Source: Nitrosopumilus sp. (GTDB lineage Archaea > Thermoproteota > Nitrososphaeria > Nitrososphaerales > Nitrosopumilaceae). Taken from it: DNA of 64,000 bases. The position numbers and the translations under genes are program-made. The stretch is from contig OZ252243.1 of the NCBI GenBank assembly GCA_965249555.1, positions 2,112,001 to 2,176,000 on the forward strand. The letters run 5' to 3'. This document shows, one piece after another, positions 6-47,226 of this stretch (the stretch's first letter is position 1; every line of letters begins with the position of its first letter). The notes under the pieces are model-generated. The model was given only the letters and a program-made list of their open reading frames with translations, was not told the DNA's origin and searched no databases.

Positions 6-1790
6 GTGATTTTTCAAGATGATTTTGATAATGGTCTAAGTCAATGGTTACAAAATTCTCATTGGCGTTCTCATTATCCAGATGAAAGAAGACAACCGTC
101 AGGCAGTCCAAGTACAAATCATGTTTTAGAAGTTGATGGTTGTCCTAGTGACTGTGAGATTAGACTTCAAAATTCTATTGATTTCTCAGATGTTCAAAAT
201 CCTAGAATAGAATTTGATAGATATATTGACAGGTCTTTGGATAGAGGTGAATATCTAAAATTATTTGCTTATGATGGTTCTAGTTGGAATCAACTAGCAA
301 TATGGAATGATGAGAATGATGATGATGATGATATGTGGCATGAAGAGATAATTAGTTTGTCTGGTTATACCAACGATGATTTTAACATAAAGTTTGTAGC
401 AAAGATGTCAAGGTCTAATGAAGATGTTGCAGTTGATAATGTTGTAATTACTGGAGGAGTTGAAGGTGATAGTCCATCAAGTATTGATTCAGATAATGAT
501 GGTGTGAATGATTCAGATGATGATTGCCCTGAAGTATTAGGGTTAGTATCATTGAATGGGTGTCCAGATATGGAATCCCCAGTTTTTGATAACTTACCTT
601 CTGATATGACTTTTGAGAGAAGGAGTGCTACTTTGGGAAAATATGTAACCATTCCTGTAGTTACTGCAACTGATAATATTGATGGTTTGTTGAATGTTTC
701 TTGTGATGAATCTTCTGGATGGTTTGCAGTTGGAACGCATACTGTAACTTGTACTGTTTCAGATAATGCTGGAAATAGTATGATAGGTTCATTTAATATT
801 GTAATTACTGAACCGATTCCTACTGATAGAGATCATGATGGCGTTCCAGATTATTCTGATAATTGTCCTGATGAAGTAGGTGTTCCTTATAATGATGGTT
901 GTCCTCTTCCTTCTGATTCTGATATGGATGGTTTAGATGATTCAGGTAATAATTGCCCAGACTTGGTTGGGGCTGTTGAGAATTTAGATTGTCCTTTAGT
1001 TCTAGGTGGCCAAGCGATGGATAGTCATTTGGATGCTAGAATATCTGTTGGTGGTCTTATCGGTGATTTTGAGTCTACAGTTACACTTCCAGTTAGGTTG
1101 ATGGATGGTAGATATGGCATAGTTGTATCTGGTCATTCAGTTAATATTGTTGATACAAGTGTATCACCACACAATGTAATTTCTAATAATGATGCTGATT
1201 GGGATCATAGTGTTAGAAATTCAGCAGGTGATTTTGTTTCAATTAGCAGAAATGATCCATCTTTTAGTGTTTATCAAGTGGGAAATACTATGATTGCAGA
1301 TTTTGATTTTATTGAAGTTGATTCAAATTATTTGAGATTGAATACCATACTTAATTCTAATGATCATTATGTTGAAGTTTCATTTGGAGATATTGATGAT
1401 GTTTCAAATAATGGACATGTTACGATGAATGGTAGATACAGTGATTCTGTTGGCCAATTGTTGTATAGAAATGCTACAGTTTTTTCAGATAATGGAATAA
1501 CACTTGTTGATCAAGGAATTACAAATAATCAGGCCATAAGAGGGGATAGTGGAGCTCCATTAATTTATGATGATTCGATAGTTGGTTTACTTCATGGTGT
1601 TGCATGTGTTTTTGAATCACCTGATGAAAATAGGTCTAGATTAGACCTAAATCTCAGAGTTGATTTCCCTTGTGGAGGAAATGATGCTGAAAGTCTTGAT
1701 ATTTATCATTCAGATCATAACTATGATTATTATAAAGTATTTTCAGATTGGGATGAAGTTGTAAGAATGCTTGATATAACTCCTCCTTAA
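6..1790 (+). CDS. Secreted multidomain protein: jelly-roll-like domain, thrombospondin type-3 Ca-binding repeats, HYR domain, C-terminal trypsin-like serine protease (probably 5'-truncated by window edge)
   Basis: DxDxDGVxDxxDxCP repeats; HYR-like ATDNIDG..C......FAVGTHTVTCTVSDNAGN; catalytic-triad-like motifs SGHS, DFDF, GDSGAP. Confidence 0.75.
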   Translation: MIFQDDFDNGLSQWLQNSHWRSHYPDERRQPSGSPSTNHVLEVDGCPSDCEIRLQNSIDFSDVQNPRIEFDRYIDRSLDRGEYLKLFAYDGSSWNQLAIWNDENDDDDDMWHEEIISLSGYTNDDFNIKFVAKMSRSNEDVAVDNVVITGGVEGDSPSSIDSDNDGVNDSDDDCPEVLGLVSLNGCPDMESPVFDNLPSDMTFERRSATLGKYVTIPVVTATDNIDGLLNVSCDESSGWFAVGTHTVTCTVSDNAGNSMIGSFNIVITEPIPTDRDHDGVPDYSDNCPDEVGVPYNDGCPLPSDSDMDGLDDSGNNCPDLVGAVENLDCPLVLGGQAMDSHLDARISVGGLIGDFESTVTLPVRLMDGRYGIVVSGHSVNIVDTSVSPHNVISNNDADWDHSVRNSAGDFVSISRNDPSFSVYQVGNTMIADFDFIEVDSNYLRLNTILNSNDHYVEVSFGDIDDVSNNGHVTMNGRYSDSVGQLLYRNATVFSDNGITLVDQGITNNQAIRGDSGAPLIYDDSIVGLLHGVACVFESPDENRSRLDLNLRVDFPCGGNDAESLDIYHSDHNYDYYKVFSDWDEVVRMLDITPP

Positions 1791-2487: not shown

Positions 2488-3561
2488 TAGCGACGATCAA
2501 AAGTTCGTGAACATCTTTGCAGGATTTCTAAAAATATAATTAACAACATCAAGTTTGAATTTTTCTGTTCCAAAGTATTGTGACACTGCATTATTCATTA
2601 TTGTAAACATTGCATAATATTCTGATACCAACAACACATGCTTATTTTCCAACACTGCTCTATCATGTTTAGATATGGTGAATCCTTTTGGTAGCCAAAT
2701 CAGTTTAACATCTGGATTATCTGTCAAAAAGTCCTTGACCTTCTTTGATTTGTGCACTGATGCCCTGTCAAGTATCAACGTAATTTTACCATATTTGTAG
2801 TGCAACTCTTTTAGATATTCTACAAATGTTATACCGTTGAATTTTTTATAAATTCTAAACAGCTGGTCTCCATTGATTGTAACTGTTCCATACACTGCCA
2901 AACTTTCATGGTTTCCCACATATGGAAGAAATATTCTTTTGGCAACTGGTGAGCAATATTTTCGTCCTGCTTTTACATCCCTAACAAAGAATGCCTCATC
3001 AAGCATTGCAATGGTGAATCCACTCTTTTTTAGGCGTGGAATTCTCTTTTTCATGCGTTGCTGCCCAGCTGCGCACGGCTGTTACACTTGCATGATTGAC
3101 GTGATATTTGTGCAGTTTTAGCAGACATTCCATACTGGCGCATTATTTTTCTGACATGTGTTATGTGAAATTTTATTCCAGTAGAATCAAATATTGTTTG
3201 CTGCAGCATTACAGGTGTAAATAGTGTCGACATAATTTTGAGCATGATATAATTCATTTGCTTCTTTGGGATTACACATGCTCTTTCACTCCTTGGGTGA
3301 TCGTAGAGGCCATCTACTTTAAAACGATCAACCCATTTGCGTACCCAGTTTGTACAGCGGTGTAGTGTTTGTGCGGTGTACTCTAATTTACCATCTTTGA
3401 GAACCATTAGTACTGCAAGCATCCTGACTATATCTTTGGAGTTTTCCTTTTTGTATGCTGCTTCAAGCTGTTCTAACTTGTTCATGTGTTTCATTGTGTG
3501 TGGTGATCAAAAAGTCTTTTGTTTTGATGATTTTTAGTTCACGAACTTTGACTCTTCGCTA
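2488..3561 (-). mobile_element. IS630-family element with frameshifted transposase
   Basis: Imperfect ~25-bp TIRs (TAGCGACGATCAAAAGTTCGTGAAC / GTTCACGAACTTTGACTCTTCGCTA) flanked by TA; HTH ORF 3051-3494 and DDE ORF 2497-3054 (DEAFF, LDRASVH); third acidic motif broken by frameshift. Confidence 0.85.
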
Positions 3562-6037: not shown

Positions 6038-7234
6038 GTTCTGTTAACTTAGCGGTTGATGAAATTTAAAATAGGAACTGGTAACTTTACGGTAGATAAT
6101 TCTACTTGGAAAGTGTCGGTAGATCAGACTTGACAGCACTTTGGATAATTGTTTTCCATTTATTGTCTCCTTGTATCTTGATTCCAGCTCTATCGGCTGG
6201 TGTATCACCATCTAGTCCTTGATGTGGTCTTATGTAGTTGTGGTGAATCTGCATACCGGATATAATTGCAGAATCAGTTTTTTTGATTCCTCTAACAACC
6301 TTTTCCCTCATTCTTAGAGTGTTTGAGTTAAATGACTCCATCTGATTGTTGTTTCTGTCATTTTTCATGTGGATATGTCTTATGTGTTCAGTTTCTTTGT
6401 GCAGAAAGTTTTTGGCTTTGTATTGTTTTTTCCAAGCATGGTGAAAGTTTGCAGCTCCGTTCAGAGATTAGTACAGTTGGAACTTTTTTTGCCTTTTGTT
6501 TAGCCTCTTTGAACATTGGAGATACATCATCATTTCCTTTGTGTGTAGATACCATTTGAGACAACCAGAATCTAGTTTCTGAATCAAGCATTGCAAAGAG
6601 ATATTTTTTATCGCCCTTGATTTTGAGATATAACTCGTCAGTTCTCCACTTTTCACCTACTTGTGGAGTTATTTTATCAAGATATTTTCCCATAAGATCA
6701 ACGTACTTTTTATTCCATTTTTGAATTGTAACGTGAGATACCTTGACACCTGTAAGGATTAGAGACTGGGAAACCTTGCGTGATGATTCACCATTAAAGT
6801 ATAGGTTCATTGCCATTGTTATCTGATCTGGTGTTGCCATCATCTTTTCAAAACCAAGATTGTGAGAACTTTCTTTTACAGTCATTACACTTGAATAACT
6901 GAATATTGTGTTGCTTGTTGTGTCGTATTCCCATTTTTATTATCTGTGTGGAATTACAATACTTGCATGAATCAAGTGTAATTTCAGAAATTATAACATC
7001 ATCTTTTACTTTCTGATGAAAGTTAATTGAGATTTATACTGCATGAATATGCTTACAACAAATTTTGTTAAAGTAATGATCCTCACAGGAACAAGACCAG
7101 CCATACTCTAAGGAGATAACGTCATGCTGTAATTTTCTTGATTGTGAGTTTACCTTGTAATGGGATTCATCAATTCTAATAATTTGGTTATTTTTCTCTG
7201 CAATTTGCTTTCCTCTAATCTCTCTTTGATTCAT
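6038..7234 (-). mobile_element. IS6-like element; transposase pseudogene with SWIM, Zn-ribbon and IS240-type DDE domains
   Basis: CSCEDH..CKHIHAV SWIM; WRTDELYLKI and NNQMESFN..HHNYIRPH motifs in fragments 6388-6885 and 6102-6368; GGTTCTGTT.. end at 6038 resembles IS6 TIRs. Confidence 0.75.
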
Positions 7235-7336
7235 GTTTATAGGTAGATTGAGTGGTATATAAATTATAGGTAGACTTATCGGTATATGTAATAGTATAGG
7301 TAGATTGATACACATGAGGATTAATCTACTGATAGA

Positions 7337-8602: not shown

Positions 8603-9952
8603 TTAGATGTATTTTGCCATCTCAGAAAACATGTTCAATTCCCTTATTCTCCATGTCTCAAAGCATGTGAGAAAGACTGAGATCATCCTCATGCCCTGAT
8701 CACTCTTCATCTGCCCGCGAACATTCCTCTGCATCACGCACTTTCGAATGGAATTCTCTGCATCATTGTTAGTTGACGGGACATCACCATCCATGACAAA
8801 CGTAAACATGCTGTTCCTTGCAGTCTTTAGCTTCTTGCCAAACTGAACCATCTCCATATCACCTTTCAAATATCGTGCAATGATACGGTCTAGCTGTTTT
8901 AGTAAATCATCCCTGTACGTTTCCCGCCGTTTTGTATGACGATTACCTACACTCCAAACCCTGGCATGACCTAGCATATCTGAGAGTTTCTCGTATAGAA
9001 TCCTTGCCTTTTTGTCCTGTGATTTTATTGCCAGATATTTGGCATCGCGCTGCAGGTGTGCAGTGCATCTCTGCTTTGTGTTATCACAAAATACTGTCCT
9101 GTACGGAGCATATCCGTCAGACACTAGGGTTCCTTTGAATTTCTTCCAGTACTTTTTTAGAACATTGGCACCTCTGCTGTACTCCAAGGCATACTGTGCA
9201 CTAGTCTTGCTTCTTGCAACCCACATCCATCCAGTATTTCCATCAATTGAAAATCCTGTCTCATCGATTCCGAGAATCTTTTCAGTCACGATTTCGCTGT
9301 GGATTGTATTGTAAAATGACTCTAACATCACACTACCGTTGCGAAGAATGGATTGTACGGTTGTATTGCTGATTTCTAATCCATATCTTTCATAGAGTGT
9401 GGTTCTGATAGCATCGTATGTCAATCTCTTTGAGAACAGTGAGACGACCTCACGTATCACTGAACCATCAAAACATCCATGTGATGGAAGGTTTCCCGTG
9501 GTTTGAAAATTATCAGAACAGTCCATGCAGATGTATTGATTCAAAACATGCTCAGTTATACCGTAGGGTGTTGGTGGAGGAATCTCAACCATTATCCTTT
9601 TGCAGGTTTTGGTTTGATGAATATTTTCACTACCGCATTTGGGACATGCATCTGATCTGTGGTGTTTGGTGCTAGTTGGTCTGAATTTCTGTGTCTTGCC
9701 AACGTGTCCTGCTATTCCACCACGTCTTGATTTGTCTGGCTGTCTGTGTTGTCTTTTTTGCTTTCTCCATTCAAGGGAATTCTTTGATGGCGGAGAGTGA
9801 GCATTCTCATAATATGACAGCTTTTTTTGCAGTTCCTTGTTTGATTCTATGAGATTCTCTATGACTAGTTTTAGTTGTTTTATCACTTCGTCTTGTTGTT
9901 TTGTCTTTTTTTGTAGCTGTATGATGATTTTCTCATGACCACAACCTGACAT
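8603..9952 (-). CDS. IS66-family transposase (TnpC-like), apparently intact
   Basis: Coiled coil, HSPPS, GGIAGHVG, CPKC..CMDC, IDETG, VSDGY, QRCTAHLQR, TNNDAENSIR. Confidence 0.92.
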   Translation of the reverse strand: MSGCGHEKIIIQLQKKTKQQDEVIKQLKLVIENLIESNKELQKKLSYYENAHSPPSKNSLEWRKQKRQHRQPDKSRRGGIAGHVGKTQKFRPTSTKHHRSDACPKCGSENIHQTKTCKRIMVEIPPPTPYGITEHVLNQYICMDCSDNFQTTGNLPSHGCFDGSVIREVVSLFSKRLTYDAIRTTLYERYGLEISNTTVQSILRNGSVMLESFYNTIHSEIVTEKILGIDETGFSIDGNTGWMWVARSKTSAQYALEYSRGANVLKKYWKKFKGTLVSDGYAPYRTVFCDNTKQRCTAHLQRDAKYLAIKSQDKKARILYEKLSDMLGHARVWSVGNRHTKRRETYRDDLLKQLDRIIARYLKGDMEMVQFGKKLKTARNSMFTFVMDGDVPSTNNDAENSIRKCVMQRNVRGQMKSDQGMRMISVFLTCFETWRIRELNMFSEMAKYI

Positions 9953-28613: not shown

Positions 28614-29651
28614 TTATATTTTCTGACTCGCTGTTGGGACAGGAAGCGAGCTTGCAAAGGATTGTACTATATGCTGGTTCTTTTCTTTGTGGTCTTTTTT
28701 GGTTGGTAGATTACCATATTTGTAGTCCAGTCTCCTCAGTTCTGTACCGTCCCATTTCTTCTCAAGAGAGTCTGCCTTTCTTTTGTACACCTTGGACTGT
28801 CTTTTGGATGTATGATTCCATGAATCAATCATCTCTGCAGATAGGACTGGTGTTGTGTGGATGATGAATGCTTTTGTCTCTGCGTTGAACTGTCTGTCTT
28901 TGGCATCATCTGTTGGCTCTCGATTGTATTTTTTGAGAATCTCTAGTTTGTCAGAGTCTGTCAATGGTCTGTCTCCTTCACTGATTGCAGCAACAAAAAT
29001 CAGACTGCATGATAGTATGGGTCTGACCTGAACAGTCTTTACCTCATCACCGCTTGGAATTAATAGTAATTCCTCACTGTGTGTTTTTCCTGTTGTCTGT
29101 ATGGATGATATTCCAGATAACTTTGGAGTGATTCCGGTACTCTGGTATCTCCTTGGTCGGTGTGATAGAATTCTGTCAGTCCTTTCAGCTGCTCTGATGT
29201 CTTTTTTTGCAAATTCTATCTCCAGGAATTGCTCATCCCATGATGGTACGATACCAGTAGAGAATCTCTTTCTTTGTACAAGGTATCCTCCACAGACACA
29301 ACGAGTTATGTCTGCTGGTTGTTTCCAGGAATGGCATCTCTTGCAACAAGTTGCCTTTTCAGTTTTTATGGAATCCATGTCAACTGGCTGTACTTCCAAT
29401 GGATATGCTCCCTTGAATTTCTTCATTGGAATCTCAAATAAACAGAGTTTGCCGTCTTGAAGAACTGCTACTACACCCTCTTTGGCTCTGAATTGAATCA
29501 AAGCCTTGTTGGTACGGTCATATTTGACATGACCTCTGTACCCTTGGGATTCTAGTTTCTGCTCAAGGTAGTTCTTTACCAAAAGCAATTTTTGACTACT
29601 TGGTACATTTTTGATACTTGTACTGGTATTGTTTGAATTTTTGAAAACCAT
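28614..29651 (-). CDS. Unknown basic protein with Zn-finger-like CKRC..CVC (paralog of 44246-45289)
   Basis: 345-aa ORF, highly similar paralog in window. Confidence 0.8.
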   Translation of the reverse strand: MVFKNSNNTSTSIKNVPSSQKLLLVKNYLEQKLESQGYRGHVKYDRTNKALIQFRAKEGVVAVLQDGKLCLFEIPMKKFKGAYPLEVQPVDMDSIKTEKATCCKRCHSWKQPADITRCVCGGYLVQRKRFSTGIVPSWDEQFLEIEFAKKDIRAAERTDRILSHRPRRYQSTGITPKLSGISSIQTTGKTHSEELLLIPSGDEVKTVQVRPILSCSLIFVAAISEGDRPLTDSDKLEILKKYNREPTDDAKDRQFNAETKAFIIHTTPVLSAEMIDSWNHTSKRQSKVYKRKADSLEKKWDGTELRRLDYKYGNLPTKKDHKEKNQHIVQSFASSLPVPTASQKI

Positions 29652-30082: not shown

Positions 30083-30796
30083 TTAGCACCCAGATTGTTT
30101 TGCCCATGGTTCATCACCGAATTCACTGATATTACAGAATCGATGAATGATCTCCGCATGGCTGTTTGATACGAGTAATGAGTTGATAGATGCAGTTGGA
30201 GTGTGTGCTGGATATCCCATACACCACACCTTGGCAATCATCCTACCATGTGAGCCGCCTTTCTGCCCGTCGTCTGCATCATAGAGTACCGCGGTTCCAA
30301 CAGGGCATTGCTTTATTGTAAATGCAGTCGCATTAGAATAGCCTTGCTCGTTACGCTCTGGAGTGTTCACCAGGGATAGTCGTATTCGAATACCATCAAT
30401 GTCTATGGTATCACCGTCGACAATCTTTGTGACTTTTCCACTCTTAACCGTTCCATATGGTATGACATCAGGGATTTGCTGTTTTGCAATATTTGTTGAT
30501 GCAATATCATTTGGCGTATCTGCCGGTTCTGATATCTGGGTGTCATTGTGAACTTTTTCAAGTTCGTTTGTGGTGTTTGCAAAGACTGCACTTATGCCCT
30601 CTGTTTTTTCCTCAACTGATGATATCATTCCGGGAATGTCTGCTGCAAGCAGTGCTGGAACAACATAGGCGTATGTGAGGGATGCAATGCTGACAATAAA
30701 TACAGTCATGCAAACAGCCACTGTTATTTTTTTGATAAATTGTTTTTTTGACATGGACTCGTATGTGAGTTTCGGAAACTTATTCCTCATCAGCAT
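30083..30796 (-). CDS. Membrane-anchored staphylococcal-nuclease (thermonuclease) family protein
   Basis: GKVTKIVDGDTI..IRIRLSLVNTPE, HGRMIAKV, INSLLV; N-terminal TM. Confidence 0.9.
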   Translation of the reverse strand: MLMRNKFPKLTYESMSKKQFIKKITVAVCMTVFIVSIASLTYAYVVPALLAADIPGMISSVEEKTEGISAVFANTTNELEKVHNDTQISEPADTPNDIASTNIAKQQIPDVIPYGTVKSGKVTKIVDGDTIDIDGIRIRLSLVNTPERNEQGYSNATAFTIKQCPVGTAVLYDADDGQKGGSHGRMIAKVWCMGYPAHTPTASINSLLVSNSHAEIIHRFCNISEFGDEPWAKQSGC

Positions 30797-30838
30797 GTCT
30801 TCTAGTTGAGTTATATTGATGAAATGATATGAGAATAG

Positions 30839-30906
30839 TGAGGGTCAGAACTTTTGCTGTCATCATTACTGATGTTCAGATCAACGCCGCTCTCATCATC
30901 CCCTCA
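30839..30906 (-). ncRNA. Box C/D-type guide sRNA, copy 1
   Basis: UGAGGG-G-AUGAUGA-GAGCGGCGUUGAU-CUGA-ACAUCAGUA-AUGAUGA-CAGCAAAAGUU-CUGA-CCCUCA. Confidence 0.85.
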
Positions 30907-31072
30907 TTATCAATCTAGAATGTTTTGAAATGTGTAAATTGGAGTTTTGTAGACTGCACTTGTACCCTCTGTCTGCTCCTCAACTGATGATATCATTCCG
31001 GGAATGTCTGCTGCAAGCAGTGCCGTAACACTTCTGGTTATGAGTTATATTGATGAAATGATATGAGAATAG

Positions 31073-31140
31073 TGAGGGTCAGAATATGGGGCTGTCATCA
31101 TTACTGATGTTCAGATCAACGCCGTTCTCATATCCCCTCA
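31073..31140 (-). ncRNA. Box C/D-type guide sRNA, copy 2 (C box has a 1-nt deletion)
   Basis: C box reads AUAUGA; D' guide GAACGGCGUUGAU; D guide CAGCCCCAUAUU. Confidence 0.7.
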
Positions 31141-31306
31141 TTATCAATCTAGAATGTTTTGAAATGTGTAAATTGGAGTTTTGTAGACTGCACTTGTACC
31201 CTCTGTCTGCTCCTCAACTGATGATATCATTCCGGGAATGTCTGCTGCAAGCAGTGCCGTAACACTTCTGGTTATGAGTTATATTGATGGAATGATATGA
31301 GAATAG

Positions 31307-31374
31307 TGAGGGTCAGAATATTGGCTGTCATCATTACTGATGTTCAGATCAACGCCGTTCTCATCATCCCCTCA
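31307..31374 (-). ncRNA. Box C/D-type guide sRNA, copy 3
   Basis: Perfect C, D', C', D boxes; D' guide GAACGGCGUUGAU; D guide CAGCCAAUAUU. Confidence 0.85.
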
Positions 31375-31540
31375 TTATCAATCTAGAATGTTTTGAAATG
31401 TGTAAATTGGAGTTTTGTAGACTGCACTTGTACCCTCTGTCTGCTCCTCAACTGATGATATCATTCCGGGAATGTCTGCTGCAAGCAGTGCCGTAACACT
31501 TCTGGTTATGAGTTATATTGATGGAATGATATGAGAATAG

Positions 31541-31608
31541 TGAGGGTCAGAACGGTTTTCTGTCATCATATTGATGTTCAGCTCAACGCCGCTCTCATCA
31601 TCCCCTCA
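31541..31608 (-). ncRNA. Box C/D-type guide sRNA, copy 4
   Basis: Perfect boxes; D' guide GAGCGGCGUUGAG; D guide CAGAAAACCGUU. Confidence 0.85.
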
Positions 31609-31912
31609 TTATCAATCTAGAATGTTTTGAAATGTGTAAATTGGAGTTTTGTAAAATTTTAGGATATTTGGAAAATTGTATTGGGTTTTGTAAAGTTTTA
31701 GGATTTTGGAAAATTGTAAAGTTTGGAGTTTTGCAGAGTTGTAAATGGTTTTGGAAAAAAGTCAGTTTCTTGTAATGATTTTGTGGTTTTTGATTTTGTT
31801 GTCTGTTTTTTTGGTTTTAGTTTTGGGTTGTAAAGCGTTGCAATATTCTGCAACGCCAAAACATCCTGAAAATTCAATCAAAATATTTTCTTGTACCGTT
31901 TTTCTGCAGATA

Positions 31913-32179
31913 CTAGAATTCAGGCTCTCCGTCATCTGCAATTCCCGGTTTTGTATCAGAGATGGTATCTTTTTTTGGATCTGGATTGATTGTTCCCATA
32001 ACATCAGTTAGAATCTTTGAGACCTCAATACCCATACTGTCCTGGTTTTGTATGTAAAGCAGTAGATCCTCGCTTGTCTGCTCCAGCTTCCTTCTGATTC
32101 TTGCCCGAATCTCCCTTTGGTATTTCTTTGAGAATGTCTGTGGTGATATGATAAATCTCCTCTCCTTTGGACTCAGCAA
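31913..32179 (-). CDS. Small basic protein, putative ParR-like adaptor (paralog of 46948-47226)
   Basis: MLSPKERRFIISPQTFSKK vs MPLTEKEKRVIVSPLSFSSK; follows an actin gene remnant. Confidence 0.65.
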   Translation of the reverse strand: MLSPKERRFIISPQTFSKKYQREIRARIRRKLEQTSEDLLLYIQNQDSMGIEVSKILTDVMGTINPDPKKDTISDTKPGIADDGEPEF

Positions 32180-42755: not shown

Positions 42756-43433
42756 TCAGTCTTTGTTTTGTAGAATGTCTTTTACCTCGTTCAGAGATTT
42801 TGCCATCTCATTTTGAGATTTTGCCATCTCATTTTGAGATTTTGCAATATTGTTTTGTAGAATGTCTTTTACCTCGTTCAGAGATTTTGCCATCTCGTTC
42901 TGAGATTTTGCAATGGATTCCAATGCCGTCAGGTTTTCTTTGCCGACATCATATATTGCCTCTTTGATACTTGTGCCAATATTCATGTTTTCTTTGCCGA
43001 CATCATATATTGCCTCTTTGATACTTGTGCCAATATTCATGTTTTCTTTGCCGACATCATATATTGCCTCTTTGATACTTGTGCCAATATTCATGTTTTC
43101 TTTGCCGACATCATATATTGCCTCTTTGATACTTGTGCCAATATTCATGTTTTCTTTGCCGACATCATATATTGCCTCTTTGATACTTGTGCCAATATCC
43201 ATCGTAGTCCAAGACATTAACATACCTACGAATCCAACTATAATAAAGGCTATGCCTTCACTTAGCAGTCGTTTGTCTGTCAGTTGGCTTGTGATGGTTA
43301 GGAATGACCCAACTACTACCATTGCCACGAATATCATGTTTTGACGTCGTGTAAGACTGATTCTTATTTTCTCTGTTGTTATTTTTTCCATTTTCTTTTT
43401 TGTAATGCTGCAAGCATCATACCTTCTCCACAT
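42756..43433 (-). CDS. Family M2 two-TM protein with five 18-aa (54-bp) repeats and heptad repeats
   Basis: IGTSIKEAIYDVGKEN(MN) x5; SQNEMAK repeats. Confidence 0.75.
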   Translation of the reverse strand: MWRRYDACSITKKKMEKITTEKIRISLTRRQNMIFVAMVVVGSFLTITSQLTDKRLLSEGIAFIIVGFVGMLMSWTTMDIGTSIKEAIYDVGKENMNIGTSIKEAIYDVGKENMNIGTSIKEAIYDVGKENMNIGTSIKEAIYDVGKENMNIGTSIKEAIYDVGKENLTALESIAKSQNEMAKSLNEVKDILQNNIAKSQNEMAKSQNEMAKSLNEVKDILQNKD

Positions 43434-44245: not shown

Positions 44246-45289
44246 CTATACTTTCTGATTCGCTGTTGGGACAGGAAGCGAGCTTGCAAAGGATTGTACC
44301 ATATGCTGGTTCTTTTCTTTGCGGTATTTTTTGGTTGGTAGATGACCATATTTGTAGTCCAGTCTCCTCAGTTCTGTACCATCCCATTTCTTCTCAAGAG
44401 AGTCTGCCTTTCTTCTGTACACTTTGGATTGTCTTTTGGATGTATGATTCCATGAATCAATCATCTCTGCAGATAGGACTGGCATTGTATGGTTGATGAA
44501 TGCTTTTGTCTCTGAGTCAAACTGTCTGTCTTTGGCATCATCTGTTGGCTCTCGATTGTATTTTTTGAGAATCTCTAGTTTGTCAGAGTCTGTCAATGGT
44601 CTGTCTCCTTCACTGATTGCAGCAACAAAAATCAGACTGCATGATAGTATGGGTCTGACCTGAACAGTCTTTACATCATTACCGCTTGGAATCAGCAACA
44701 ATTCCTCTTGGTGTAAATCTACCATACTTGTAGATGACATTCCAGCTAGTTTGCGTGTGATTCCAGTACTGTGGTATCTCCTTGGTCGGTGTGATAGAAT
44801 TCTGTCAGTCTTTATTGCTGCTCTGATGTCTTTTTTTGCAAATTCTGTCTCCAGGAATTGCTCATCCCATGATGGTACGATACCAGTAGTGAATCTCTTT
44901 CTTTGTACAAGGTATCCTCCACAGACACAACGAGTTATGTCTGCTGGTTGTTTCCAGGAATGGCATCTCTTGCAACAAGTTGCCTTTTCAGTTTTTATGG
45001 AATCCATGTCCACTGATTGCACTTCCAATGGATATGCTCCCTTGAATTTCTTCATTGGCATCTCAAATATGCAGAGTTTGCCGTCTTTGAGAACTGCTAC
45101 GGTTCCCTCTTGGACCCTGTATTGTATTAGAGCCTTGTTGGTTTGGTCATATTTGATATGACCTCTGTATCCTACAGATTCCAGTTTCTGCTCAAGGTAG
45201 TTCTTTGCCAAGAGTAGTTTCTGGCTTTGTACATTTTTTACACTTGTACATGTGTTTTGAATTTTTTTGCTTTGTGTTTTTCGCATCAT
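44246..45289 (-). CDS. Unknown basic Zn-finger-like protein (paralog of 28614-29651)
   Basis: 347 aa; CKRC..CVC. Confidence 0.8.
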   Translation of the reverse strand: MMRKTQSKKIQNTCTSVKNVQSQKLLLAKNYLEQKLESVGYRGHIKYDQTNKALIQYRVQEGTVAVLKDGKLCIFEMPMKKFKGAYPLEVQSVDMDSIKTEKATCCKRCHSWKQPADITRCVCGGYLVQRKRFTTGIVPSWDEQFLETEFAKKDIRAAIKTDRILSHRPRRYHSTGITRKLAGMSSTSMVDLHQEELLLIPSGNDVKTVQVRPILSCSLIFVAAISEGDRPLTDSDKLEILKKYNREPTDDAKDRQFDSETKAFINHTMPVLSAEMIDSWNHTSKRQSKVYRRKADSLEKKWDGTELRRLDYKYGHLPTKKYRKEKNQHMVQSFASSLPVPTANQKV

Positions 45290-45557
45290 AGTATTTTACC
45301 TCACCTAAATGGTGGTCTCTTCTCAAATGCTGCACTAATACAGATTGTAACTGATCTGTCCGTAGATAATCGATGTCGTCACCAGAGTATAGCTTGCGCT
45401 AGTATGAAAAAATAATTTCTGGTGTGAATATATTCCTCATCATTCAATGTCGGGAATCTATTCCTGTTGCTTCATCCTTTTTACGATGAAACAAATGATA
45501 CTGCTGTGCGGACTGGTTGTTCTCTTTGATGTTGTTGTATTTGAGAAAATTCTTTAT

Positions 45558-45616
45558 CCCTCATACCTGCTCGCTGAGTCGATTTCTTTGCAGGGTTGGA
45601 GATTATATCTCAGTTT
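45558..45616 (-). promoter_or_regulatory. Minimal diverged copy of the structured leader core
   Basis: CCTGC/GCAGG and CTGAG/CTCAG stems in the same interleaved order. Confidence 0.55.
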
Positions 45617-45670
45617 GACAAAACCTTGATCTTTTACCGACACTTAAAATAGTACAAAAACAAAATTGTA

Positions 45671-45740
45671 TAGAGGGCTCAGATAGATGGCTGTCATCAC
45701 TAATGATGTCAGATTGCCAGAGACTCATCATAGCCCTCTA
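45671..45740 (-). ncRNA. Box C/D-type guide sRNA, diverged fifth copy
   Basis: UAGAGGGC-U-AUGAUGA-GUCUCUGGCAAU-CUGA-CAUCAUUA-GUGAUGA-CAGCCAUCUAU-CUGA-GCCCUCUA. Confidence 0.85.
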
Positions 45741-46106
45741 TTTTGTTTTTGTATGGTTGGAGATTCTATCTCGGTTTTGCAAAGATTTGGCGTATTTGTG
45801 GTTGTCTAATTAGACAGCCTTTTTGATATTTTTTGTTAAAATTGTGTTTTTTTGTTGTGTTTGAGAAAACCTAGGGATTTTTTCTTATCTGCTGATTTTA
45901 CAGTCTTTTTTGTTGTGTTGGTTTTTTTACGCTTGATTTTAATTATGTATGGAAATTTTCTATTCAGGACTTTTTTTATCTCCATCATACAGCAAAATGC
46001 ATGGGTCGTCAAATTAGGCAACCATACAAGTGATTTTGTGTTTGAGGTTGTCTATTTAGGCAACCACAAAAAGTCGCCTTTTATTGAAAATTTACACCAT
46101 CATACG

Positions 46107-46961
46107 ATGAATGAAAATATAATTGGCTTAGACGTTGGAACTGGTTCAGTCAAAGTTGCAACGGTTCATGGAACGTTTGCATTCCCATCAATAGTTGCAA
46201 GAGGAAAAAGCATGGAGCTTGAATCAAGAGGAATGGTTCTAGTCGGAGAAGATGCAGTAAAGGCAGAACAGGTAAAGTCAGTGGTTCTAAAGACTCCAGT
46301 ATATAGAGGAGCGCCAACATCCATTAATGATTATTTGGAATTGATCAAACATGCATTAGATAAAGCAATAGAGCCACAAAAATATGCGTTATACAAATCC
46401 CAAAAGTATTCCGATTTGGTAATTATTGCAGGAATTCCTTACAATGCAAAAGAGTACAGTCAAAAAATAAAGGACTCAGTTATTGAAAAATTTGCCCCAA
46501 AGTTCTTTGGGTTGATGTATCAGGCAAAGGCAACGCTGGATAATGAAGATATGACTCATGGTATCGTATGTCATATCGGTCATGGTACAACTGAGATAAT
46601 GGTAGTATCGCATGGAAATATTGCACATGCTCAAACAATTAATCACGGGGTTGGAGACATAACAAATGTCATAACATCATCCAAGGCAGACTATTTGAAT
46701 GAGAAGATATTTTCAAAAAATACCGTACAATTAGCAGAGCAGAGAAAAATTCTTGCAGCACACATATCTGATGTATTGGAAAAAGTCATAATTGACTATC
46801 CACAGATTCCTGTGATTTGTGCAGGAGGCGGTGCACTAGTTCCAAAATTGATAGGTGAAATCAAAAATGACATAATTATCCATGTAAGAATTGCAAAGAA
46901 TCCAGTATATTCAAACGCACTTGGAATGCTAAAAAAGGCATCAAAACATGCCTCTGACTGA
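46107..46961 (+). CDS. ParM/StbA-like actin-family ATPase (284 aa; likely start MNENIIGLDVG)
   Basis: GLDVGTGSVK, FPSIV, HIGHGTTE, AGGGAL, YSNALG. Confidence 0.85.
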   Translation: MNENIIGLDVGTGSVKVATVHGTFAFPSIVARGKSMELESRGMVLVGEDAVKAEQVKSVVLKTPVYRGAPTSINDYLELIKHALDKAIEPQKYALYKSQKYSDLVIIAGIPYNAKEYSQKIKDSVIEKFAPKFFGLMYQAKATLDNEDMTHGIVCHIGHGTTEIMVVSHGNIAHAQTINHGVGDITNVITSSKADYLNEKIFSKNTVQLAEQRKILAAHISDVLEKVIIDYPQIPVICAGGGALVPKLIGEIKNDIIIHVRIAKNPVYSNALGMLKKASKHASD

Positions 46962-47226
46962 GAAAGAAAAGAGGGTAATTGTATCTCCTTTATCATTTTC
47001 ATCAAAACAAAGAAAGACTACCAAACACAGGACAAAGATAAAAATTCAAGATATATTGCATGATATGCAATTTCTAATTAAAAATCACCGTATAGTACAT
47101 GATGAGTTTGGAATTGATGTACTTGAAAATGCTGCAATGCCTGAGCATTTCTCAGAATCATACACCAAAGAGAATGACGGAGATACATCACATGATAAAC
47201 CATCAAATGATCCAGACCTGCTTTGA
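46948..47226 (+). CDS. Putative ParR-like adaptor / DNA-binding protein
   Basis: Small protein with basic N-terminus and acidic C-terminus, overlapping the actin stop codon. Confidence 0.6.
   Translation: MPLTEKEKRVIVSPLSFSSKQRKTTKHRTKIKIQDILHDMQFLIKNHRIVHDEFGIDVLENAAMPEHFSESYTKENDGDTSHDKPSNDPDLL

Follow-up and report, generated by a model that had tools for sequence, protein, structure and literature searches.

A putative box C/D sRNA family in the control region of presumed plasmid-like elements of Nitrosopumilus

Box C/D guides are regarded as cellular housekeeping genes, abundant mainly in thermophiles; what, then, is a C/D-like sequence doing beside a partition gene in a Nitrosopumilus chromosome? 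The sequence in question, here called cd5, occupies positions 45671–45740 of the 64,000-nucleotide stretch of DNA that we analysed (the window). With a probability of roughly 0.7, we read it as a genuine archaeal box C/D sRNA gene belonging to a family carried by putative plasmid-like integrated Nitrosopumilus elements, a reading drawn from sequence comparison and folding. Members of the family typically occupy a control region with an actin-like partition operon on one side and, on the other, a leftward operon whose first gene often encodes a 347-aa Zn-ribbon protein, and because relatives recur at this same spot in related elements, mobile DNA seems to carry its own RNA-modification guides.

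An earlier, sequence-only reading of the window had described a C/D scaffold here, and all that it listed can be seen on the minus strand: four boxes, their spacing, CAUCA/UGAUG pairing and a CAG following C′. This strand reads from 45740 to 45671 as UAGAGGGC-UA-UGAUGA-GUCUCUGGCAAU-CUGA-CAUCAUUAG-UGAUGA-CAGCCAUCUAU-CUGA-GCCCUCUA. Its parts, in plus-strand coordinates, are as follows:

45671–45740, minus strand: box C/D sRNA cd5, recognised by boxes, sub-threshold Rfam matches, covariance model and folding
45733–45740, minus strand: 5′ stem, UAGAGGGC
45725–45730, minus strand: C box UGAUGA (with the preceding A, AUGAUGA at 45731–45725)
45713–45724, minus strand: 12-nt D′ guide, GUCUCUGGCAAU
45709–45712, minus strand: D′ box CUGA
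45700–45708, minus strand: linker of 9 nt, CAUCAUUAG
45694–45699, minus strand: C′ box UGAUGA
45683–45693, minus strand: 11-nt D guide, CAGCCAUCUAU
45679–45682, minus strand: D box CUGA
45671–45678, minus strand: 3′ stem, GCCCUCUA
45653–45666 and 45740–45753, minus strand: arms of an outer 14-nt perfect inverted repeat, 100% complementary, which lengthens the terminal stem

This is the layout of an archaeal C/D RNA, with RUGAUGA towards the 5′ end and CUGA towards the 3′ end, the D′ and C′ boxes on a short linker (8–10 nt in the 23 relatives tabulated) and spacers of 12 and 11 nt (10–14 nt family-wide) against an archaeal norm of ~12 nt. The terminal stem of 8 bp begins directly after box D, and in box C the GA is preceded by three unpaired bases; such a 3-nt bulge, together with a stem that adjoins box D, is characteristic of the k-turn register in box C/D RNAs. 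The plus strand of 45671–45740 has no C/D boxes. Since both strands fold equally well (minimum free energy −26.7 kcal/mol, z −3.1, for cd5; −26.6 kcal/mol for the plus strand), energy cannot tell them apart, and it is the boxes that do. Extended to 107 nt by the outer inverted repeat, the fold reaches −38.7 kcal/mol (z −6.8), a value equalled by 0 of 200 shuffles; on the RNA strand the 3′ arm of this repeat is rich in U (AUUUUGUUUUUGUA), and it may be a terminator or a precursor stem. One feature counts against the C/D reading: the CAUCA/UGAUG hairpin would compete with formation of the C′/D′ k-loop. Among contigs from sequencing runs (four compared), those of two runs are identical to the window across cd5, and that of a third is ~90% alike over 45227–47057 and lacks one nucleotide of the D′ guide, at 45721.

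Chance is a poor source for such a motif. In the window, the strict four-box pattern has four matches, cd5 and three copies of a tandem array described below, and dinucleotide-preserving shuffles of the window contained any strict motif in 1 of 300 cases (mean 0.003). Elsewhere in the 2,230,439-bp genome the strict pattern was not found, its matches being confined to the cd5 and array places, and a reversed control pattern gave 0 matches in our set of 151 genomes of the genus, in which the genome of this window is G000. Rfam yielded 0 matches in the window at gathering score; in E-value mode, the 401 bases around cd5 matched many full-length C/D snoRNA models, on the minus strand only, the top sub-threshold model being archaeal sR1 (RF01152; 25.1 bits, E 1.7e-4, gathering score 45). 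Under the family's own covariance model, trained on 14 of its C/D members, cd5 scores 84.3 bits (E 5e-18).

The sequence-only reading had further held that the terminal stem differs yet stays paired, and that cd5 is a fifth, diverged member of one C/D scaffold; both statements stand. Across the 14 aligned sequences, 88% of the cells of the terminal helix are paired, as against 16–60% when the 3′ partner is slid, and three stem pairs show double-sided changes (AU in eight sequences and UA in five; UA in seven, GC in two and GU in one; the third being an outer pair), a covariation score attained by 0 of 500 shuffles. Compensatory change across the family thus keeps a helix of 8–9 bp, of which cd5 has 8, in k-turn register; with only 14 sequences, and related ones, this covariation is supportive, not conclusive.

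The host genome, a single 2.23-Mb contig of Nitrosopumilus type (34.4% G+C, one 16S–23S operon), encodes the C/D machinery, with fibrillarin (298 bits), Nop5 (231.6 bits) and L7Ae (90.8 bits) all above Pfam cut-offs. The window itself contains TraG- and VirB4/HerA-type ATPases (TraG-D_C, 26 bits; P-loop_TraG/DUF87, 51.9 bits), a TBP paralogue, a DNA methylase, an IS66 transposase, large Ig-like surface proteins and many tandem repeats, a gene content from which the setting is read as a putative integrated plasmid-like or conjugative element. The immediate surroundings of cd5 are these:

44246–45289, minus strand: gene for the 347-aa Zn-ribbon protein, first gene downstream of cd5, 390 nt away
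45587–45622, minus strand: copy B of a 36-nt direct repeat, downstream of cd5, with palindrome GAGAUAUAAUCUC and a TATA-like centre; 83% identity between copies
45748–45783, minus strand: copy A of the 36-nt direct repeat, just upstream of cd5
45800–45825, 46004–46029 and 46046–46071: three palindromic repeats of 20–26 nt, GGTTGTCTAATTAGACAGCC-like, between cd5 and the actin-like gene
~46107–46961, plus strand: gene for an actin-like (ParM/MreB-type) partition ATPase, divergent from cd5; its open reading frame is listed from 45852, with a likely ATG at 46107
46948–47226, plus strand: 92-aa adaptor-like gene; it overlaps the last bases of the actin-like gene and belongs to no Pfam family

The product of the actin-like gene matches actin/MreB-fold ATPase domains above their cut-offs (PF06723, 40.9 bits, cut-off 27; PF00022, 29.3 bits, cut-off 27), and scores 18.2 against ALP_N, under the cut-off of 26.3. 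The 347-aa protein has an invariant cysteine cluster, CCxxC...CxC, and no Pfam family; its AlphaFold model, with a mean pLDDT of 63 and confident only over residues ~20–170, found no fold match above noise (best Foldseek E 0.5; best VIA-align Z 5.2). The 36-nt repeat that brackets cd5 has the palindrome GAGAU(A/U)(U/G)AAUCUC, and AAGGTTTTGTCAAACTGAG is kept downstream of the C/D RNA in G000, G187 and G483. Copy B is the probable promoter/operator of the 347-aa operon; because the TATA-like centre of copy A lies ~26 nt before the first stem base, this copy may be cd5's own promoter. The 20–26-nt palindromes resemble centromere/operator-like sites, and related GTAATTA palindromes occur upstream of the C/D RNA in G187, G483 and G286.

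About 14 kb to the left, the window holds the other four C/D sRNAs of the family as a tandem array:

28614–29651, minus strand: gene for a 345-aa Zn-ribbon paralogue, downstream of the array, with 90% nucleotide identity to the 347-aa gene
30083–30796: gene for a 237-aa protein, between the array and the 345-aa paralogue
30807–31653, minus strand: tandem array of four C/D sRNAs, with a 234-nt period, 3.6 units and 96% matches
30834–30909, 31068–31143 (C box broken), 31302–31377 and 31536–31611, minus strand: model matches of the four array copies
31913–32179, minus strand: 88-aa adaptor paralogue, upstream of the array on the same strand, E 1e-9 to the 92-aa adaptor

The two loci had been said to share an equivalent context. 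This is borne out for the downstream gene (345 or 347 aa) and describes the cd5 locus accurately, and it fits the array locus only loosely: there the adaptor paralogue is in the other orientation, no actin-like gene is detectable and an extra 237-aa gene intervenes, so the statement is only partly right. (A 41-aa open stretch upstream of the 88-aa reading frame, which by eye resembles an actin remnant, was discarded when BLASTP gave no alignment.) The array copies have in common the D′ guide GA[G/A]CGGCGUUGA[U/G], and their four D guides are all different. Over the block common to the four units, 7 of 12 D-guide columns vary as against 6 of 133 other columns (Fisher p 5e-6, the columns having been picked after the alignment was seen), and in the arrays of G286 changes are likewise concentrated at the centre of the D guide; we hypothesize, from the three arrays measured, that D guides are hypervariable within arrays. 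One array copy has suffered a one-base deletion in its C box, giving AUAUGA, and with UUAUGA and UUAUAA in G286 such broken boxes indicate that part of the family is decaying.

How widely does the scaffold recur? The covariance model gave 59 matches in 15 of the 151 genomes, often in arrays (13 copies in G286, at two loci; 11 in G482; 4 in G488), and the box pattern, which matched 10 genomes, two of them only through low-complexity sequence of the TGATGATGATG type, supplied further members in G340, G483, G489, G500 and G501. Scanning metagenomes returned one match, a marine contig with a member of the C/D family; a pattern scan of IMG/VR viral contigs returned 0. Homologues of the 347-aa protein are present in 10 of the 151 genomes, sometimes as 4–5 tandem genes; sampling 401 genomes from the order found them in 7, none of these outside the genus.

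The sequence-only reading had made the RNA a core part of the element family and had proposed co-occurrence with the 345-aa protein and the actin as the check. RNA and 347-aa homologue are found together in six genomes (G000, G340, G483, G489, G187 and G286), adjacent in five and apart in G340, and the RNA does sit at the same place in homologous elements, 0.3–1.4 kb upstream of the homologue in G187, G483, G286 (twice) and G489; the single RNA of G187 precedes the first 347-aa-type gene by 400 nt, and the arrays of G286 lie 1.4 kb upstream at both loci. The association is frequent, not obligatory. A 347-aa homologue is undetectable in 9 of the 15 RNA-bearing genomes, 4 of the 10 homologue-bearing genomes (their homologues all ≤37% identical) are without the RNA, and searches with the C/D model over 18 kb found nothing around both actin/347-aa loci of G340 or around the distant homologues of G358, G372 and G382; 'core' is thus too strong a word. 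The link to the actin-like partition gene is tighter. Close actin-like homologues (≥48% identity) occupy 10 loci in 8 genomes, a count that leaves out two contig-end fragments in G268, and at 8 of these 10 loci a C/D RNA or array lies divergently upstream, 284–1314 nt away (362 nt in G000, 320 in G187, 348 and 284 in G286, 319 in G483, 424 in G500, 429 in G482 and 1314 in G488). Many other C/D copies lie elsewhere, and in G340 and G501 they stand upstream of homologues of window ORFs 7034–6102; within the window, no C/D copy was seen upstream of ORFs 3051–3494 and 7034–7315, whose homologues follow C/D RNAs in other genomes. We give counts alone because related genomes are not independent, and the pattern they form makes the RNA a recurrent, non-obligatory module of these elements.

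Both guides of cd5 had been called new, and guide turnover on a conserved scaffold had been taken as a sign of function. The turnover claim is half right. Against the window array both guides are indeed new, and D guides, and they alone, do turn over; the D′ guide of cd5, on the other hand, recurs with 1–3 changes in G340, G501, G187 and G482, and D′ guides in general fall into at least four classes kept across species:

Class 1: GAnCGGCGUUGAU, in G000 (array), G286, G483 and G489
Class 2, that of cd5: GUCUCUGGC[A/G]AU, in G000, G340 and G501, with variants GUUUCUGGCACGU in G187 and GUUUCUGGCACU in G482
Class 3: G(U/AC)(U/A)CCAUUCAU(U/A), in G286, G500 and G489
Class 4: GCCGCGUGCA(AU/UG), in G500 and the marine metagenome contig

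Among the carriers of class 2, stems, linkers and D guides differ while the D′ guide stays, the D guide being CAGCCAUCUAU in cd5, CAGCAAAGCUAU in G340 and G501, and CAGCAACAAU in G187. A search for the class 2 guide found full C/D members only in G000, G340, G501, G187 and G482, its other four matches having no recognisable full four-box structure.

What might the guides of cd5 recognise? Complementarity to rRNA or tRNA of ~9 bp or more that covers guide nucleotide 5, as archaeal C/D guides show, was not found for it: against 16S and 23S rRNA the D′ guide reached at best 9 pairs with 2 G–U (shuffle p 0.77) and the D guide a p of 0.66, and against 56 tRNAs called by Aragorn the values were 0.96 and 0.54. 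RNase P, SRP and 5S RNA and the rRNA spacers offered no target either; over the whole genome, the only perfect complements were the guides' own antisense, one-mismatch complements were at chance level, and 10-bp cores with G–U were noise. The sole 11-nt genomic complement, at genome position 1299601, is antisense to a nucleotidyltransferase-like reading frame and was dropped. Orphan guides are known among archaeal box C/D sRNAs, so the absence of a target does not exclude cd5 from that family; given the RNAs searched, its substrate would be another host or element RNA.

Other members come closer to a target. The class 3 guide GUUCCAUUCAUU of G286 forms 11 Watson–Crick base pairs with 23S 2071–2081 (AUGAAUGGAAC), a match equalled by 3 of 200 shuffled guides, and at the same site its variants in G500 and G489 form 9 and 8 bp, all placing methylation on A2074. 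By ungapped alignment with the annotated E. coli 23S gene, the site is 1966–1976 and the nucleotide A1969, in domain IV shortly after helix 69; the accessible text of a review (PMC7994747) describes helices 68–71 of this domain as a conserved hotspot of C/D methylation. With 32 guides tested, ~0.5 would be expected at p ≤ 0.015 by chance, and the three with p ≤ 0.025 (one at 0.015, two at 0.025) are only a modest excess. Class 1 pairs with 23S 2002–2012 (E. coli 1897–1907; 10–11 pairs, 2–3 of them G–U) and with 16S 904–912 (9 pairs, the site being identical in five relatives checked), neither significantly (shuffle p 0.07–0.57), and class 4 with the anticodon arm of tRNA-Ala(UGC) over 10 Watson–Crick bp (shuffle p 0.1), a lead only. 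Two further candidates were rejected: a 12–13-nt match of class 1 to the 3′ end of tRNA-Ser(CGA) is in the same sense and not complementary, and a model for the array of an anchor plus nearby D-guide sites scored 29.5 at best, against a null mean of 25.8 and a 95th percentile of 29.5.

Anatomy, stem covariation, conserved D′ guides and the presence of three core proteins in the host favour a true C/D ribonucleoprotein on host proteins. We would expect cd5 to be transcribed leftward, starting either at the promoter-like motif that is present in two copies or, with cd5 at its head, as part of the operon leader; C/D next to the terminal stem, and C′/D′, would then form a k-turn and k-loop that recruit the host's L7Ae, Nop5 and fibrillarin, and the 12-nt D′ and 11-nt D guides would direct 2′-O-methylation. 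By the C/D rule, the methylated nucleotide pairs with the fifth guide base upstream of each box. Being kept between species, the D′ guide is probably the working one.

Could the same sequence instead act in cis, its k-turns binding L7Ae or a whole C/D ribonucleoprotein on the leftward operon transcript, so that processing, stability or translation is controlled and the guides are mere spacers? The RNA does always precede a gene or operon in the same orientation (that of the 347-aa or 237-aa protein or, in G340 and G501, homologues of ORF 7034–6102), cd5 is without a target, and binding of L7Ae to k-turns in mRNA is documented in the available text of PMC5539422. A k-turn switch, however, needs neither two exact 11–13-nt spacers nor a cross-species D′ guide nor a covarying stem closing a 70-nt unit; the downstream genes vary between loci; a promoter-like motif separates the RNA from the 347-aa gene in G000, G187 and G483; and a single leader would hardly account for arrays of up to 13 copies. 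We consider a cis-acting leader unlikely. We think it doubtful indeed that cd5 descends from an ordinary cellular C/D sRNA which an element captured, duplicated in tandem and now carries without function. Such an origin would sit well with orphan guides, with C boxes broken in some array copies, with the two weaker C/D-like loci elsewhere in the chromosome and with C/D genes that duplicate and ride MITE-like elements, as the text available of PMC6009581 reports; it sits badly with boxes and stem that are intact in cd5 and, despite the divergence of flanks, stems and D guides, in single-copy orthologues from five other genomes, with a D′ guide better conserved than its surroundings, and with a search of the 151 genomes of the genus that found no chromosomal class 2 'source' gene.

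Position invites yet another view, to which we give very little credence: that cd5 is a DNA-level site for partition, replication or transfer, made of repeats and a hairpin that merely mimic C/D boxes. Palindromic repeats surround it in a par/operator region, it forms an extended inverted repeat itself, its relatives occur in iteron-like tandem arrays, and it folds equally well on both strands. Yet the motif is strand-asymmetric and fits the RNA consensus box for box in the correct k-turn register, its spacers hold a length of 10–14 nt while their sequence changes, distinct adjoining palindromes already fit the operator/centromere role, and one guide class matches rRNA over 11 bp. Each of these rivals fits some of the facts; none explains at once why the spacers are exact, the motif strand-asymmetric and the D′ guide conserved between species.

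Taking cd5 as a C/D sRNA gene, one may go further, to a reading that we put forward as a speculation with the odds well against it: the RNAs could be a programmable RNA-methylation cargo of plasmid-like elements that borrows host fibrillarin, with the conserved D′ guide permanently directed at a host RNA (23S domain IV for some classes, possibly also the tRNA-Ala(UGC) anticodon loop) and the D guide diversified in arrays under selection. If this were true, cargo RNAs might protect RNAs of the host or the element against 2′-OH-dependent nucleases, or retune ribosomes in the element's favour, and they would be the guide-RNA counterpart of plasmid-borne rRNA methyltransferases.

The box C/D sRNA family is well known; what seems new here is its carriage by putative mobile elements. 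Like archaeal box C/D sRNAs such as sR1 (RF01152), cd5 has the boxes, ~12-nt guides, terminal stem and 55–70-nt size, and a host with the three proteins; unlike them, it falls under the Rfam gathering score, is element-borne beside partition genes and has orphan guides, its family forms tandem arrays, and it resides in a mesophilic-type thaumarchaeon in which very few other C/D genes can be recognised. In type II (ParMRC-like) plasmid partition loci, the gene of an actin-like ATPase precedes that of a small adaptor, and palindromic sites are repeated upstream; the cd5 locus shows the same order and upstream palindromes, its adaptor belonging to no Pfam family. We know of no C/D RNA gene upstream of a described ParMRC locus. 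Epstein–Barr virus encodes a C/D snoRNA, v-snoRNA1, in single copy, which is alike in being a mobile genome's C/D RNA dependent on host C/D proteins, and different in coming from a eukaryotic virus, in being single-copy and in having no relation to cd5 in sequence or context. A further comparison is Pyrobaculum, where C/D sRNA duplication, guide replacement and a proliferating MITE-like form are reported in the accessible text of Lui et al. 2018 (PMC6009581): there too guide genes multiply with mobile or unstable DNA, guides are replaced and orphan guides occur, the copies being dispersed on a hyperthermophile chromosome, whereas here they form head-to-tail arrays and singles at a fixed place of a putative conjugative-type element. 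The words plasmid, virus and tandem have 0 occurrences in the text of that paper available to us, as do sRNA, snoRNA and fibrillarin in the available text of a survey of thaumarchaeal integrated elements (PMC6563490). A full-text literature search, whose reach ended before supplements and most subscription journals, found no report that plasmids, viruses or integrated elements carry C/D sRNAs or methylation-guide sRNAs.

If the RNAs are active, mobile DNA could reprogram the RNA modification of its host by delivering a 60-nt guide, and the family would offer a testable case of element-driven ribosome or tRNA modification in archaea. Run over the whole chromosome, the covariance model finds the five window copies (49–84 bits) and two weak loci, at genome coordinates 180176–180259 (35.3 bits) and 2013704–2013784 (30.4 bits); a looser scan for C and D boxes with a stem lists 14 candidates as against 1–5 in shuffles, none of the 14 having a 10-nt perfect rRNA complement. 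In a mesophilic-type ammonia oxidiser, then, hardly any C/D gene of the cell itself can be recognised, while mobile elements hold up to 13 copies beside partition genes, and within one and the same RNA a guide kept across species stands next to another that varies sharply between neighbouring copies.

A 27-codon piece from the 5' part of the 237-aa gene (30083-30796) lying downstream of the window's array of four C/D sRNA copies (30807-31653, minus strand) recurs, 85% identical, in every 234-nt array unit (window 30680-30796 compared with the units), indicating that the duplication unit covers the RNA together with part of the coding sequence. The gene's product has a weak SNase-like match and a hydrophobic segment at its N-terminus. 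Large tandem arrays of the same C/D family are found in other genomes of the genus:

G482:C2:119859-123213, tandem array of 11 copies
G286:C1:276036-276922 and 451037-451768, tandem arrays of 8 and 5 copies
G488:C1:483767-484540, tandem array of 4 copies

The D'-C' linker of the G482 copies is a 17-nt hairpin, and in several of the G286 copies the C box is degenerate (UUAUGA, UUAUAA).

Around the window array, the minus strand of 22500-43500 carries a long series of gene modules that are near-repeats of one another, in which each 120-aa ORF is followed by ORFs of 140-175 aa containing coding tandem repeats of 21/42/63 nt (...SSQKETSNSLKEIA...):

Window 22596, 25178, 33563, 35240, 36851, 39408 and 41965, minus strand, seven 363-nt ORFs (120 aa)
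Window 42929-43202, 54-nt repeat, 5.1 copies, within a 225-aa ORF

Beyond the window, our own covariance model, built from 14 family members, yielded two weaker C/D-like RNAs in the host chromosome, the first of them closely followed by homologues of the ORFs at window 3051-3494 and 2497-3054:

Genome 180176-180259, plus strand, 35.3 bits, stem GAAGGGC/GCCCUUC
Genome 2013704-2013784, plus strand, 30.4 bits, stem GAAGGC/GCCUUC

Among the D' guide classes common to several species, class 4 has these carriers:

L058 (marine metagenome contig) 538-613, minus strand
G500:C1:648277-648352 (another genome of the genus)

Its D' guide, GCCGCGUGCA(AU/UG), can form 10 bp with U33-G42 of tRNA-Ala(UGC), and methylation guided by this pairing would fall on C36 of the anticodon; with a shuffle p of 0.1, the match is only a lead. 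tRNA-Ser(CGA) was rejected as a partner for class 1, whose D' guide and start of box D' read CCGGCGUUGAUCU in G286 and CGGCGUUGAUCU in the window array: the tRNA's 3' end and trailer (genome 1829245-1829260, outside the window) are identical to them in the same sense rather than complementary, and the identity may be chance. Chance may likewise account for the partial complementarity (UGGC/GCCA) of the two guides of the single C/D sRNA at window 45671-45740 (minus strand; guides 45713-45724 and 45683-45693), which pair with each other in the MFE fold.

The host genome as a whole is highly repetitive: near-identical copies of an IS66 transposase, homologues of window 8603-9952, occur in number around the chromosome, as do several further dispersed multi-copy gene pairs. 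Aragorn called ten 'tRNA-Phe(GAA)' and several 72-nt 'tRNA-Leu' genes in it, most of which are probably false or repeat-derived.
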